Made by a program: the position numbers and the translations under genes
The notes under the pieces: generated by a model
Seen by the model: the letters and a program-made list of their open reading frames with translations, nothing else
Database searches by the model: none
Told to the model about the DNA's origin: nothing
From: a virus
Lineage: Duplodnaviria; Heunggongvirae; Uroviricota; Caudoviricetes
Direction: 5' to 3' (one strand)
IMG/VR virus record: IMGVR_UViG_2516143027_000011
Span: 1-21,652 of that record
DNA: 21,652 nt
Shown here: piece after piece, positions 7,337 through 11,651 of the stretch
Layout of the letters: each line of letters starts with the position of its first letter
Position numbering within the stretch: the stretch's first letter is position 1

Positions 7337-7662
7337 AAATCCACCTGCGCAGAGATCCCGCCAAAATCGTATGTACTCGCGGTTACCCACAACCGCTTCT
7401 GACTTTCTTCACTGATTTCCACCGTACCCGGCACAATGCGTTCATCATCTTCAATCAGTAATTCCATGCGGGTAAAAATATCCGCTCTCATTGTCGGGCT
7501 ACGTTCGGCAATTAATTCCGTCGCTAACCCACTTTCAATAATGGAATGAATAATGTCCTGCCCGATACTTTTTCGGTTATTACATAATTCAGGTTCATTA
7601 CCGGTATTCAGAACAAAGTCACCGCTCTGAATCAGCAAATCGATATAAAGAACATCACTCAT
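7333..7662 (-). CDS. Baseplate wedge protein, gpW / gp25-like (109 aa)
   Basis: Start set to ATG at 7662, which overlaps the tape measure stop (ATGA). N-terminal pattern DLLIQSGDFVLNTGNEPEL...IGQDIIHSI fits the gpW/gp25 fold; sits immediately before baseplate J as in P2. Confidence 0.55.
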   Translation of the reverse strand: MSDVLYIDLLIQSGDFVLNTGNEPELCNNRKSIGQDIIHSIIESGLATELIAERSPTMRADIFTRMELLIEDDERIVPGTVEISEESQKRLWVTASTYDFGGISAQVDL

Positions 7663-9626
7663 GCGCCAAGCTCCTGCCATTCCATAAGCTGGGATGGAGA
7701 AAGTGCTTCTTTGGTATGGAAATGCACTTCACCAATTTTCCGGCTGTTATCGGTTACGGATTTACTGTTGCTGTTGATTGTTTTGCTGATACCACCTTTA
7801 TCCACACCTTTTAAATCACCCCCCGTTGACAGTGTATTTCCGGTTAATGGCTGCGTGGTTTCACTGGCCAGTGAAATATCCACGCCGGGAATTTTATTCA
7901 GTTTCTGAACAATCCAGTTCCACGACTTAAGAAATCCCCCTTTGATTGACTTCCAGACATTATCAAACAGCGACATAATGCCGGAGGCCATCCCCTTTAA
8001 CGCCTCAGACGGTGAAAATCCTGTCAGCAAAGAAATAAAGCTGTTCCATCCTTCACTGATATATTGCCAGGCTGAAGCAAAGATCCCCGCCAGCCACTTC
8101 ACCACGGCGGCACATGTCTGGAAGGCTTCGGTATTCATCACCGCTGCTTTTATCGTGTCCCAGTGCTTAACCAGCAGATAACAACCGGCAACCAGCAGCG
8201 CAATGGCACCAATCACAAGCAGGATCGGCCAGCTCATCAGGTTGATACCAATTCCGGCCATAATTGCGGCCATGCGTACCGCCAGTAACGCACCGCGCAA
8301 AAACTTCAGCGTGGTATTCCAGGCGATTACCGCCATTTGCGCCAGCCAGACAGTGGCCGTGTAGATTTTCGTAACCGCCGTTAACGCCACCCAGATCCCG
8401 CGCAATCCCATCATGATGAATCTGGATACCCCCATCACGATATTGGCCACCGCTCCCACAGCGGCAAAGCTCAGTAATGCCATCGACGCATAACCAATCA
8501 TACGGGCAATGTTAGGAAATAACTGCATCCAGCGGGCAAAGGTCTGCCCCATATCAGCCAGGCGATTCAGAACCGGATACAGCACCGGGATCAGCGTCAG
8601 CCCGATCACGGTCTGAATGGCTTTCAGGATTTGCACAAAGCGATCCCACGGCTTGACCATTTTTTGTGCCATTTCCTGGGTACGCTTCAGGCCATCCGCG
8701 CCGCCCAGTTCGGTGATGTTCCGCTGAAGTAACGCGACATTGCCGTAAAGATGTTTAACCACTGCCGAACTGTCACCAAAGGCTGCATCCAGCTCCGTCT
8801 GGGCTTTCAGGTTCCCTTCAAGGCTTTTGCCATATTTGCCCTGCAACTTGATCAGCATTTCAGGCATGGACAGCATTTTGCCGGTGGAGTCAGTAAAGGA
8901 CAGCCCCAGCTTTTTAGCGCCATCAATCGCGCCGGTCATAAATCCTTCATAGGCGCTGCTGGCTTCCGTTCCCAGCGTCCGCTGAAGTTGCCCCAGCACG
9001 GCCAGCTGTTCATCCAGCCCCACACCGTAGTTAGTCCCGACGCCGCGCGCACCTTCCATCAAATCCTTGATAGTGGCCATTTCTGTGCCAAAGGTTTTGC
9101 GCATATAAACCATCTTGCCTGCCAGTTGCTCGGCAAACTCCACCTTGCCCAGTCTGGCGGCATCGGCGGAAAAGTTACCGAACATCTGCCCCATAAATTC
9201 CGCCGTGTCCGCCGCTGTGGACTTGAGCGCAAACGCCAGGGTATTGGCGACTTTCGTCACCTTCGGCAGTTCATTACCCGTCAGTCCGGCAATGGAAGCG
9301 TTAATATTTTCCGTGGATTTAACGAACTCCACCGCGCTGGCACCGTAGGTTGTACTGAAACGCAGGGCATCACGCTGAACGGTCTTAAGCGCGGAATCAT
9401 CAATCCCTTTTGCGGCGGCATCATTCAGCGCGTCATACATTTCAATTGCCGGTGATAATGCGCCTTTGATCGCCATCCCGACACCGGCCAGCGCCACCGC
9501 GCCGCCGCCAATCTGCATAAAGGCCGCTTTTGATTTTTCCGCAAAGCCGGTGACGTTACCCTGCACCTGTTTTAACGGGCGGGATAATTTATCAATCAGG
9601 CTCAATGTAAAATCTAATTGTTTCAT
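7659..9626 (-). CDS. Tail tape measure protein (655 aa)
   Basis: Long Ala/Gly-rich helical protein with central hydrophobic segments; directly follows the tail chaperone gene, and its ATG overlaps the stop of the chaperone frameshift extension. Confidence 0.85.
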   Translation of the reverse strand: MKQLDFTLSLIDKLSRPLKQVQGNVTGFAEKSKAAFMQIGGGAVALAGVGMAIKGALSPAIEMYDALNDAAAKGIDDSALKTVQRDALRFSTTYGASAVEFVKSTENINASIAGLTGNELPKVTKVANTLAFALKSTAADTAEFMGQMFGNFSADAARLGKVEFAEQLAGKMVYMRKTFGTEMATIKDLMEGARGVGTNYGVGLDEQLAVLGQLQRTLGTEASSAYEGFMTGAIDGAKKLGLSFTDSTGKMLSMPEMLIKLQGKYGKSLEGNLKAQTELDAAFGDSSAVVKHLYGNVALLQRNITELGGADGLKRTQEMAQKMVKPWDRFVQILKAIQTVIGLTLIPVLYPVLNRLADMGQTFARWMQLFPNIARMIGYASMALLSFAAVGAVANIVMGVSRFIMMGLRGIWVALTAVTKIYTATVWLAQMAVIAWNTTLKFLRGALLAVRMAAIMAGIGINLMSWPILLVIGAIALLVAGCYLLVKHWDTIKAAVMNTEAFQTCAAVVKWLAGIFASAWQYISEGWNSFISLLTGFSPSEALKGMASGIMSLFDNVWKSIKGGFLKSWNWIVQKLNKIPGVDISLASETTQPLTGNTLSTGGDLKGVDKGGISKTINSNSKSVTDNSRKIGEVHFHTKEALSPSQLMEWQELGA

Positions 9627-10071
9627 TCAGTGCCTTTAAATGCTTTTGCCACACCATTGGCCACGGCTATTCCGGTATATTCCCAGTGACGATTGTCCAG
9701 CCAGATAGCGGCGGCGATATCATCAACGGAATCCTGACCATACGGTAAATAATGACGGCGGAGAATTAAATATTGTTCGAGTCCATTCCTTTCAATTTCA
9801 TGGACTCGCTTTGTCAGTTTTTTACTTCAATTTCCAGTTCAGGCGCATAAATATCATTTACTTTGCCAACCAGTTGAAGCGCTGCACCCGGACGTTTTAA
9901 TACTTCTGCCAGTGCTTCTTTACTTTCCGTTGCCACAATTCGCGTCAGATAGTTATGTGCCGGGGCAACTTTATTATCCATCGCCATTTCATTAATAAAT
10001 TTGTTGTAGGCGGTCTGATTTGGCTCAAAAACAATATCAACACCACAAACACACAGTTTAATTTGTTCCAT
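9623..10071 (-). CDS. Tail assembly chaperone, -1 frameshift fusion product (P2 gpE+E' / lambda gpGT analogue, about 149 aa)
   Basis: From the heptamer at 9823-9817 the -1 frame is open for 64 codons (LTKRVHEIERNGLEQYLILRRHYLPYGQDSVDDIAAAIWLDNRHWEYTGIAVANGVAKAFKGTE). Its TGA (9625-9623) overlaps the tape measure ATG (9626-9624). The extension has no start codon of its own. Confidence 0.55.
9814..10071 (-). CDS. Tail assembly chaperone, short form (P2 gpE / lambda gpG analogue, 85 aa)
   Basis: Track start 10074 is GTG; the adjacent ATG at 10071 was used. Sits immediately upstream of the tape measure gene and ends in the slippery heptamer A_AAA_AAC. Confidence 0.6.
   Translation of the reverse strand: MEQIKLCVCGVDIVFEPNQTAYNKFINEMAMDNKVAPAHNYLTRIVATESKEALAEVLKRPGAALQLVGKVNDIYAPELEIEVKN
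9817..9823 (-). other. Programmed -1 ribosomal frameshift slippery heptamer A_AAA_AAC
   Basis: Minus-strand sequence GTA AAA AAC TGA at the 3' end of the chaperone ORF gives a canonical X_XXY_YYZ heptamer, in the position conserved in tail chaperone genes. Confidence 0.55.
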
Positions 10072-10357
10072 CACTCATACTCTCTCTTAAATTAATTTCG
10101 TCCACTAACTGATTATGACGCGCAGCACACTGCCCATAAATTTCAGGATAAATTGTCAGTAATTCCGCTGCATCTTTTCCTGTCGTACCGTTCAGGCGCG
10201 GCAGCTGCGTTGTGCATTTAGTTTTCAGGTTTTCCTGATAACGCACGTTCGGTACCAGCTGCGGCGCTGTTGTACATGCTGACAAACTCATCAGACAGAC
10301 AACGATTGGTAAAAACGGGCTTAAGTATTTCCGTGCGTATCTCTCGCGGTGCCACAT
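10058..10357 (-). CDS. Rz1-like outer-membrane spanin lipoprotein (o-spanin)
   Basis: Signal peptide with lipobox (MWHRERYARKYLSPFLPIVVCLMSLSA|C); GGAGG Shine-Dalgarno upstream of ATG at 10357; overlaps the 3' part of the Rz-like gene in a different frame. Confidence 0.55.
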   Translation of the reverse strand: MWHRERYARKYLSPFLPIVVCLMSLSACTTAPQLVPNVRYQENLKTKCTTQLPRLNGTTGKDAAELLTIYPEIYGQCAARHNQLVDEINLRESMSDGTN

Positions 10358-10556
10358 TTTTTAACGCCTCCAGTTTATCTTCCAGCGCTCTGGCCGAATC
10401 ACTGGCAATACCCTGCATTGCTTTTCGCGATTCATTACCGGCCACCTGCGCCGCTGTATTGATTGCCAGCTCTAAGCTGTCACGCCGCCAGTCAGCGGTC
10501 AGCCAGCCCCAGACAAACGCCAGCGCCACCACAACCAGCCACTGCCCGCTGCTCAT
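10218..10556 (-). CDS. Rz-like inner-membrane spanin (i-spanin)
   Basis: N-terminal transmembrane helix (WLVVVALAFVWGWL) followed by a charged helical periplasmic domain; directly downstream of the endolysin gene. Confidence 0.55.
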   Translation of the reverse strand: MSSGQWLVVVALAFVWGWLTADWRRDSLELAINTAAQVAGNESRKAMQGIASDSARALEDKLEALKNVAPREIRTEILKPVFTNRCLSDEFVSMYNSAAAGTERALSGKPEN

Positions 10557-11195: not shown

Positions 11196-11651
11196 TTATC
11201 CGATCAGGTTTTCTGTGGCTTCCGCTTCCAGATACGGCACACCGTTGATGTTGACGAATTTCGGACTGGTCACGAAATATTTGATTTTGTGCGTGGTCAC
11301 ACCGCCACCTTTCGGATCAATATCCAGCAGGTTGCTGACCTGCAATTTATTGCCGAACGTCTCCACCTTCATTTCTTCGCTACTGGCTTTGGCATAGAAA
11401 AGAAAATCAAGTGGGGGAAGCCCACGCCATGAACCCGCTGCACGGGCTTTGGCTGTCAGCACCTGAAGTGTTTTTGAACTGACTTCAATTTCCCCTTCGG
11501 CGGCAACATCGCCATCCACATACCCGTCAGGGACGCCACGCGTCTGGGCGGCAGCGCTGTTATCCGTAATATCGAGCGTGATTTTCTCGATATGGATCAG
11601 ATCGCCGTCCATATAGGTGTCAAACGACATACCCGAAATACGTTTAGTCAT
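11196..11651 (-). CDS. Tail tube protein (151 aa)
   Basis: Directly downstream of the sheath-like gene with ATGA overlap; size and position fit a myovirus tube protein. Confidence 0.55.
   Translation of the reverse strand: MTKRISGMSFDTYMDGDLIHIEKITLDITDNSAAAQTRGVPDGYVDGDVAAEGEIEVSSKTLQVLTAKARAAGSWRGLPPLDFLFYAKASSEEMKVETFGNKLQVSNLLDIDPKGGGVTTHKIKYFVTSPKFVNINGVPYLEAEATENLIG

Follow-up and report, generated by a model that had tools for sequence, protein, structure and literature searches.

The tail assembly chaperone gene in the window (the whole stretch of DNA analysed, 21,652 nucleotides) very probably gives rise to two proteins, an 85 amino acid chaperone and a 149 amino acid fusion produced by a programmed -1 frameshift, and this is the explanation that best accounts for the locus as a whole. 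The frameshift is an unannotated case of the classic, well-known frameshift of phage tail genes. All the features predicted for such an event at the level of the sequence were found, which supports this reading.

The window carries the tail module of an HP1/ESSI-2-like prophage of the P2 family (Peduoviridae) from E. coli. The genes lie in the order sheath, tube (HP1 Orf24 family; 11196-11651), holin, endolysin, Rz/Rz1, chaperone, extension, tape measure, DUF2590 and baseplate J, with the lysis cassette inserted between the tube and chaperone genes, as is also the case in HP1. The features from the chaperone ORF to the tape measure gene are on the minus strand. The tape measure gene (positions 7659-9626) encodes 655 amino acids and matches Pfam PhageMin_Tail with an E-value of 3e-22; the annotations of ESSI2_ev040 and of E. 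coli RefSeq entries call it a tail tape measure protein. Its product is presumed to be the client of the chaperone, the ORF of which is directly upstream.

The chaperone ORF (9814-10071) starts with the ATG at 10071, stops with the TGA at 9816-9814 and encodes a protein of 85 residues that ends in EIEVKN. The 86 residues given in the program-made ORF list arise because the list starts at a GTG one codon upstream. The protein matches Pfam Phage_TAC_10 (PF10963) with an E-value of 6e-36 and 123 bits (curated cut-off 25.7) and belongs to PHROG 1214, and PGAP calls a 'putative phage tail assembly chaperone' at the same coordinates. An AlphaFold2 model of the chaperone domain alone, i.e. without the extension, has a pLDDT of 89.9 and consists of a beta-hairpin and four helices. 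The best viral fold matches of this model in BFVD are named tail assembly chaperone (TM 0.6-0.7) and its best match in the PDB is 3fgx (TM 0.73), with Foldseek E-values of only 0.003-0.07; a sequence search against solved structures gave no match below an E-value of 0.5. Family membership and modelled fold identify the product of this ORF as a tail assembly chaperone.

The 3' end of the chaperone ORF reads GTA (9825-9823) AAA (9822-9820) AAC (9819-9817) TGA and contains the slippery heptamer A_AAA_AAC (9817-9823), which is in the X_XXY_YYZ register of the 0 frame and is directly adjoined by the 0-frame stop (TGA, 9814-9816). From the heptamer the -1 frame is open for 64 sense codons (LTKRVHEIERNGLEQYLILRRHYLPYGQDSVDDIAAAIWLDNRHWEYTGIAVANGVAKAFKGTE; 9626-9817), from CTG at 9817-9815 through to GAA at 9628-9626, which would be read only after a shift. 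The frame ends at a TGA (9623-9625) that overlaps the tape measure ATG (9626-9624) as ATGA, the two codons having TG in common. The other two frames of the gap between the genes are full of stops and there is no minus-strand ORF of at least 50 amino acids over 9627-9813. The initial annotation had described the heptamer and the GTA AAA AAC TGA terminus, the open -1 frame of 64 codons, the overlap of its stop with the tape measure start and a gap that is otherwise ORF-less with an extension that has no start codon. Reading and translation of the minus strand bear out each of these; the first in-frame ATG, GTG or TTG is at codon 54 of 66, past most of the domain encoded there. Upstream of the heptamer, the sequence CCTGAACTGGAAATTGAAGT has no GGAG, GAGG or AGGA core and so offers no Shine-Dalgarno-like element at a distance of about 10-14 nt.

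The C-terminal end of the extension (9632-9763; residues 104-147 of the fusion) matches DUF6890 (PF21830) with an E-value of 5e-22 and 77.9-80.2 bits (curated cut-off 23.6) and phrog_7050 with an E-value of 4e-20. Both families are labelled 'unknown function' in Pfam and PHROGs. The signals within the window are weak: a 66-codon frame is open in 1.6% of mononucleotide shuffles (P about 0.016), and AAAAAAC occurs 10 times against an expected 6.1, which is not above chance. The finding is nonetheless far above chance because the whole arrangement is kept in 54 distinct related loci.

These loci, which include the phages HP1, HP2, K139 and phiO18P, span the Enterobacterales, Aeromonadales, Vibrionales, Alteromonadales and Pasteurellales together with Pseudomonas phages, and retain the arrangement down to 34-40% protein identity. 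The heptamer is A_AAA_AAC in 49 of the 54, the other five being A-rich variants (A_AAA_AAA in three, A_AAA_AAG in one and A_AAG_AAA in one, L023). The extension is 61-66 codons long and its stop is at, or no more than about 20 nt from, the tape measure start in those related loci with an annotated or evident start. Counted from the slip site, the first 48 residues of the extension align without gaps in all 54 loci, and the only length changes are one internal four-residue deletion (L043) and differences at the C-terminus. Pairwise differences at codon positions 1, 2 and 3 are 0.32, 0.25 and 0.60, respectively, i.e. show coding periodicity, with a median dN/dS of 0.20 (430 pairs), and the same signature is already seen in codons 3-20 past the slip site (0.33, 0.30 and 0.63). 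These substitution patterns show that purifying selection acts on the -1 frame of the extension from the slip site onwards. A lack of conservation in related phages, which the initial annotation had named as grounds for rejecting its proposal, was thus not observed. All 115 protein homologues are at most 99 amino acids long, indicating that in-frame fusion of the two parts does not occur among them, and neither in-frame fusions nor independent starts were found in the relatives. One locus, L046, is the only one with a disrupted chaperone gene; it also has a truncated extension and a broken covarying pair in the hairpin described below.

The 0-frame stop lies directly 3' of the heptamer in 52 of the 54 loci, across several orders of the Gammaproteobacteria, though the -1 codons that overlap it change and encode L-T, L-S, L-A, L-E or a sequence beginning with I.

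Beginning 8 nt past the heptamer is a predicted RNA hairpin (9778-9808) with a 9-bp stem, CGAGUCCAU / AUGGACUCG, and a 13-nt loop (RNAfold, -14.0 kcal/mol). The stem is 8-9 bp in the close enterobacterial clade, where, among 15 distinct sequences, 99.2% of hairpin cells are paired compared with 4-40% in slid controls. One pair covaries (A-U in nine, G-C in six, none broken) and three others vary only via G-U. Because both arms code for conserved residues (R-V and N-G-L-E), their conservation in part reflects the protein sequence. Distant clades have a weaker hairpin or none, and the Yersinia, Aeromonas, Haemophilus and Vibrio relatives lack it at this position; over the whole family 64% of cells are paired compared with 58.5% in shuffles, which is weak support, and folding of the region gives a z-score of only -1.55. 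An Rfam scan revealed no frameshift element, the only hit being a sub-threshold sRNA match on the opposite strand. The possibility that the hairpin is an intrinsic terminator was rejected, as it is not followed by a T-run and a terminator scan gave no minus-strand match there.

In the proposed mechanism, the majority of ribosomes would terminate at the TGA right after A_AAA_AAC and release the 85 amino acid chaperone, while a minority would slip back by one base on the heptamer, where the tRNA-Lys bound to AAA, together with the tRNA-Asn if AAC is already occupied, would re-pair with AAA AAA. The junction of the fusion is predicted to read ...IEVKNLTKRVHE or ...IEVKKLTKRVHE, with N or K at residue 85 expected from two-tRNA or P-site-only slippage, respectively. 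The slipped ribosomes would translate 64 more codons in the -1 frame and end on the tape measure start codon. In the resulting 149 amino acid protein a linker of about 18 residues would join the chaperone domain to the 44-residue DUF6890 domain. In the enterobacterial clade, the 9-bp hairpin 8 nt downstream is probably a pausing or stimulatory element, and the abutting stop may be one too. If lambda gpG/gpGT is a guide, the N-terminal domain common to both products would coat the tape measure and the extension would recruit the tail tube protein, with a fixed ratio of short to long product driving tail assembly and neither product present in the virion. Since the extension has no detectable homology to the E' of P2, the proposed tube-binding role is one assigned by analogy only.

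More tentatively, the site may represent a separate kind of -1 signal that is coupled to termination, with the abutting 0-frame stop as an obligatory pause element, a proposal we regard as possible but less likely than not. The ribosome would then shift while the stop codon awaits its release factor and tRNA-Asn occupies the P site, and the clade-specific hairpin would tune the ratio of the products, as opposed to the textbook model in which the downstream structure does all the work. If this were the case, DUF6890 and PHROG 7050 would exist in nature only as a frameshift product.

The current annotation implies that the gap holds an independent small gene for a stand-alone DUF6890 protein. 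PGAP calls a 27 amino acid 'DUF6890 family protein' with an ATC start at 9623-9706, the records of ev239, phiO18P, phi3 and SI7 place small ORFs of their own in the gap (46-59 amino acids in some phage records), and the domain has a family to itself in both Pfam and PHROGs. Such a gene is, however, very unlikely given that no in-frame start codon is conserved across the 54 loci, four of which have no ATG, GTG or TTG in the extension at all. The annotated starts differ among records, PGAP having resorted to ATC, and the codons that lie 5' of every proposed start (3-20) are already coding-periodic and aligned without gaps from the heptamer. Moreover, PGAP handles the proven E' of P2 identically, giving it separate entries of 31-61 amino acids named 'GpE family phage tail protein', and the stand-alone calls for the extension therefore appear to be a pipeline artefact. 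The 27 amino acid ATC-start CDS is best read in this way.

A real fusion could also be made by transcriptional slippage, with an additional A inserted when RNA polymerase copies the A6 run. The site is homopolymeric and the transcript with one extra A encodes exactly ...V K K L T...; both routes yield the same protein and are indistinguishable by sequence alone. Efficient transcriptional slippage in bacteria needs runs of about nine or more A/T, compared with six here, and in L023 the sequence A_AAG_AAA interrupts the A run while retaining a tRNA-Lys slip site. The register of the heptamer, which is always X_XXY_YYZ, the covarying structure 8 nt downstream and the near-invariant abutting stop are all features of a ribosomal signal, which makes the transcriptional route unlikely. 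Hardly credible at all is an open -1 frame that is due to chance, or is a decayed remnant without a product, or is reached by termination and reinitiation at the CTG. The frequency of open frames in the shuffles and the lack of heptamer enrichment in the window are compatible with chance, and the CTG does overlap the TGA stop. Chance or decay is contradicted by the retention of the arrangement in 54 loci with a dN/dS of about 0.2 and by the co-occurrence of the three defects in L046, and reinitiation by the presence of CTA, which is not a start codon, at the CTG position in 28 of the 49 A_AAA_AAC loci. The programmed ribosomal shift is therefore preferred.

Inspection of 13 records from the phage family showed the two frames joined in none; in HP1, HP2, K139, phiO18P and the ESSI-2 relatives the gap is either empty or contains a small 'hypothetical protein'. 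The predicted long form of the chaperone, which would be essential, is missing from the public records of a whole P2-family lineage, comprising HP1, HP2, K139, phiO18P, ESSI-2 and their relatives in the Enterobacterales, Aeromonas, Vibrio, Pasteurellaceae and Pseudomonas. The value of the finding is chiefly in annotation, the biology being that of the textbook. DUF6890 and PHROG 7050 can be assigned a role, namely that of the C-terminal domain which the frameshift adds to the Phage_TAC_10 chaperone, and the near-universal abutting stop together with the clade-limited covarying hairpin offers a small natural series for the tuning of frameshift efficiency. A search of the open-access literature found no paper naming DUF6890 or a frameshift in HP1-like phages.

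The initial annotation had likened the arrangement to lambda G/GT and P2 E/E+E'. The likeness holds for organisation and mechanism and does not extend to sequence, as homology to P2 E+E' is not detectable. In lambda, a siphovirus, the gene position is the same as here, and slippage occurs on G_GGA_AAG several codons before the G stop. The lambda -1 shift, which lies close to the 3' end of the chaperone gene, sets the long form at a constant, low proportion relative to the short one; the domain present in both forms binds the tape measure, the tail tube protein is bound by the extension, and neither form is present in the virion (PMC5009743).

P2, like the phage described here, is a Peduoviridae myovirus with a chaperone ORF of about 85-91 amino acids upstream of the tape measure gene. 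The frameshift that yields gpE and gpE+E' was reportedly described by Christie et al. in 2002 and by Xu, Hendrix and Duda in 2004. The P2 record annotates E/E+E' with a join and the topology is the same as here. In both, the -1 extension is about 55-65 residues long, has no start of its own and carries a small conserved domain at its very end, the fusions being 142 (P2) and 149 amino acids. The chaperone ORF here is immediately upstream of the tape measure gene, and the E stop of P2 is about 145 nt before T, a stretch bridged by E'; the extension stop overlaps the tape measure start by 8 nt in P2 and by 4 nt here. The Pfam families differ, namely Phage_TAC_7 and Phage_P2_GpE in P2 as opposed to Phage_TAC_10 and DUF6890. 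In P2 the shift takes place on T_TTT_TTG, six codons ahead of the E stop, and no hairpin is present (PMC3091744), unlike the A_AAA_AAC with its abutting stop and close-clade hairpin. Homology of the chaperone and extension to P2 E+E' was rejected, as BLASTP gave no alignment and there was no match to PF10109 or PF06528 even at an E-value of 10. With hhalign the probability was at most 0.3% in both profile-sequence and profile-profile comparisons, the latter with 49 P2 E' relatives. A motif noticed by eye in both P2 E' and the extension, H-aromatic-x-P followed after 13 residues by W, was dropped as it had no statistical support.

The heptamer itself is identical to that of IS1 insA/insAB', which encodes a transposase and not a phage chaperone. 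In IS1, A_AAA_AAC is a low-efficiency motif, and the IS1 site has no established stimulator, in contrast to the abutting stop and conserved hairpin found here. It is a proven -1 frameshift site in E. coli (PMC4066793). Signals of the dnaX/IS3 type would have a stem-loop, supported by covariation, 5-9 nt past the heptamer; here a stem-loop with an 8-nt spacer and one covarying pair is seen in the close enterobacterial clade, with weak support over the whole family, and the internal Shine-Dalgarno-like element of such signals is absent. The true homologues are HP1 and HP2 orf26, K139 orf30, phiO18P gp36 and the ESSI-2 relatives, which have the same Phage_TAC_10 chaperone and a homologous extension at 48-58% identity; HP1, HP2, K139 and phiO18P also share the heptamer.

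The tail assembly chaperone ORF runs on the minus strand from an ATG at 10071 to a TGA at 9816-9814 and encodes 85 amino acids (MEQIKL...LEIEVKN; the ORF listing makes it one codon longer, as the start was taken at a GTG). It ends in GTA AAA AAC TGA and carries, at 9823-9817, the heptamer A_AAA_AAC in the X_XXY_YYZ register. From the heptamer the -1 frame translates as KK LTKRVHEIERNGLEQYLILRRHYLPYGQDSVDDIAAAIWLDNRHWEYTGIAVANGVAKAFKGTE* and stays open for 64 codons past it, ending at a TGA (9625-9623, minus strand) that overlaps the ATG (9626-9624) of ORF 7659-9626, which encodes the tape measure protein (Pfam PhageMin_Tail). The ORF listing has no minus-strand ORF of at least 50 amino acids in the gap 9627-9813, the remaining two frames of the gap each contain multiple stops, and the earliest in-frame ATG, GTG or TTG of the extension is codon 54. 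The initial annotation had proposed a programmed -1 frameshift from the heptamer, the open frame, the TGA/ATG overlap and the ORF-less gap; re-reading and translating the minus strand gave the same features and confirmed all coordinates.

The chaperone matches Pfam Phage_TAC_10 (E 6e-36). Its AlphaFold model (pLDDT 89.9) is a beta-hairpin with four helices and superposes on PDB 3fgx (TM 0.73) and, with TM 0.6-0.7, on proteins of unrelated phages that BFVD names tail assembly chaperone; Foldseek E-values were weak (0.003-0.07). Upstream are genes for an M15 endolysin, Rz/Rz1-type spanins, an HP1 Orf24-family tube protein and a DUF2586 sheath; DUF2590 and baseplate J genes lie downstream. The two-component spanin pair directly precedes the chaperone (10058-10556, minus strand): the Rz-like ORF (10218-10556) is overlapped in a different frame by a PGAP-called ORF (10058-10246) with a weak LysC/Rz1 Pfam match (25.2 bits, under the cut-off of 27); the last 14 nt of this ORF run into the start of the chaperone gene. 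At the DNA level the window shares 98% identity with Escherichia phage ESSI2_ev040 (Peduoviridae, Quadragintavirus), and 39 of the 5426 complete E. coli genomes searched carry prophages 99.8% identical to it. The prophage region also turns up, at 99% protein identity to the window, on the contig JAEWTL010000126.1; its label, 'MAG: Bacillota bacterium', very probably reflects misbinning or contamination.

The sequence evidence makes programmed -1 ribosomal frameshifting at A_AAA_AAC highly probable; IS1 provides the proof that this heptamer supports -1 shifts in E. coli (PMC4066793). The gene would thereby yield both the 85-aa chaperone and, as a fusion of chaperone and DUF6890, a protein of 149 aa. 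In lambda, the domain shared by the two products attaches to the tape measure protein, and the extension brings in the tube protein (PMC5009743); by analogy, the common domain and the extension may divide these tasks here in the same way. In the window alone the signal is only marginally above chance: the -1 frame was left open in 1.6% of shuffles of 198 nt, AAAAAAC occurs 10 times (6.1 +/- 2.3 expected) and the region folds slightly better than shuffled sequence (z-score -1.55). The case depends on related sequences.

A profile search with the chaperone gathered 42 genome loci, and DNA similarity or tblastn with the extension added 12 phage records (including HP1, HP2, K139, phiO18P, Pseudomonas phi3, Salmonella SI7, Yersinia YenM324, Cronobacter ESSI-2, one Vibrio and one Pseudoalteromonas phage), giving, window included, 54 distinct extension sequences. 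The heptamer is A_AAA_AAC in 49 loci, A_AAA_AAA in three, and A_AAA_AAG and A_AAG_AAA in one each. The last two variants, in phi3 (701-707) and Citrobacter sp. FP75 (1740-1746), both keep the -1 extension. The extension is 61-66 codons long in all 54 loci and stops at the tape-measure start or within about 20 nt of it; its proteins align without gaps over the first 48 residues from the slip site, indels being limited to C-terminal length differences and, in one locus, the loss of 4 residues. Lack of conservation in relatives, named by the initial annotation as evidence against a frameshift, was not found: the median dN/dS of the extension is 0.20 (430 pairs), and mean pairwise differences per codon position are 0.32/0.25/0.60, with 0.33/0.30/0.63 already at codons 3-20. 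This pattern, together with the dN/dS, indicates that the -1 frame is translated, starting at the heptamer. No in-frame fusion of both parts was found in a 5.8-billion-protein collection, where the 115 protein homologues are all at most 99 aa and the fusion protein of close relatives is undeposited.

The 0-frame stop immediately abuts the heptamer in 52/54 loci (in phi3 it lies 21 nt downstream) and is kept while the overlapping -1 codons vary (L-T, L-S, L-A, L-E, I-x), which suggests that its position is itself under selection; the reason may be that the chaperone needs a fixed C-terminus (VKN) or that the stop acts as a pause element. In all 49 A_AAA_AAC loci, including the window (9817-9819, AAC CTR), the seventh base is C and AAT TTR, with the same Asn, stop and Leu coding, is unused, a hint of selection on the identity of this base. 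Reading the sequence upstream of the heptamer revealed no Shine-Dalgarno-like core.

Eight nucleotides downstream of the heptamer is a hairpin (9808-9778, minus strand; -14 kcal/mol) with a 9-bp stem, CGAGUCCAU and AUGGACUCG, and a 13-nt loop. A comparison with Rfam gave no matching family, and a role of the hairpin as terminator was ruled out. In the close clade, set in advance at chaperone identity of at least 78% (15 distinct sequences), 119/120 cells are paired, against 4-40% when the 3' arm was slid by 1-3 columns. One pair covaries (A-U in 9, G-C in 6, no broken intermediates) and three change solely through G-U; on the 3' side the covarying base falls at an Asn codon's wobble position, and the change is therefore not protein-driven. 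Conservation of the hairpin is partly coding-derived, as its arms encode R-V and N-G-L-E. Judged from these alignments the hairpin is a clade-specific element, because pairing is strong in the close clade, is 64% at the same columns across 50 distinct sequences (58.5% in shuffles), and the hairpin is absent in the Yersinia, Aeromonas, Haemophilus and Vibrio relatives. The sole close relative with the covarying pair broken (CAT with AAC) is Enterobacter sp. EA-1 (CP025776.1, 1501-1950), probably a decaying prophage since its chaperone gene is frameshifted and its extension truncated.

Were RNA polymerase to slip on the A6 run, the protein would be identical, but such transcriptional slippage is improbable given the short A run, the A_AAG_AAA variant, the fixed heptamer register, the abutting stop and the downstream hairpin. 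A separate small gene in the gap has in its favour the PGAP call, in E. coli RefSeq, of a 27-aa 'DUF6890 family protein' with an ATC start inside the extension (window 9623-9706, minus strand; 995-1078 in a related locus, L005). This reading is very improbable, however, as no start codon is conserved across the 54 loci, four of which lack any start, and coding conservation is already present upstream of every proposed start. The PGAP call looks like an HMM-driven stand-in for the missing join; PGAP treats the proven P2 E' likewise, as a stand-alone 'GpE family phage tail protein'.

In all 13 homologous records inspected the gap is blank or given a small 'hypothetical protein', and Pfam DUF6890 and PHROG 7050 are both labelled as of unknown function. 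The chaperone frameshift was correctly identified initially, and the phenomenon is textbook. The novelty is limited. It consists of a member of the conserved chaperone frameshift, or rather an entire lineage of them, that annotation has missed; the assignment of a function to DUF6890 and PHROG 7050; and a description of the signal as A_AAA_AAC with an abutting stop and, in one clade, a covarying hairpin. Xu et al. 2004 and Christie et al. 2002 reportedly describe conservation of the arrangement in phages related to P2, and HP1 may therefore have been listed by them.

P2 encodes E (91 aa) and E+E' (142 aa), slips on T_TTT_TTG without a hairpin, and its extension stop overlaps T by 8 nt (PMC3091744); the P2 record annotates E+E' with a join and slip site. 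The chaperone/extension/tape-measure layout is that of the window, whereas the slip site differs, the window having A_AAA_AAC with a hairpin, as do the families (Phage_TAC_7 and Phage_P2_GpE in P2, Phage_TAC_10 and DUF6890 here). Both extensions contain H-aromatic-x-P followed 13 residues on by W (RHYLP...IW, fusion residues 106-124, in the window; FHWPP...TW, residues 111-129, in P2); as a sign of homology to E' the motif is unsupported (profile comparison probability <1%). The initial match to lambda G/GT and P2 E/E+E' thus holds for layout and mode of action but not for the P2 sequence family: the Pfam families differ, and neither BLASTP nor hhalign detected homology of the window pair to E+E' or aligned the extension with E'. 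In mechanism the window element is akin to P2 E/E+E' and lambda G/GT, but it lies outside the P2 sequence family. Its true homologues are HP1 orf26, K139 orf30, phiO18P gp36 and their relatives, and HP1 shares with the window a lysis cassette between the tube and chaperone genes.
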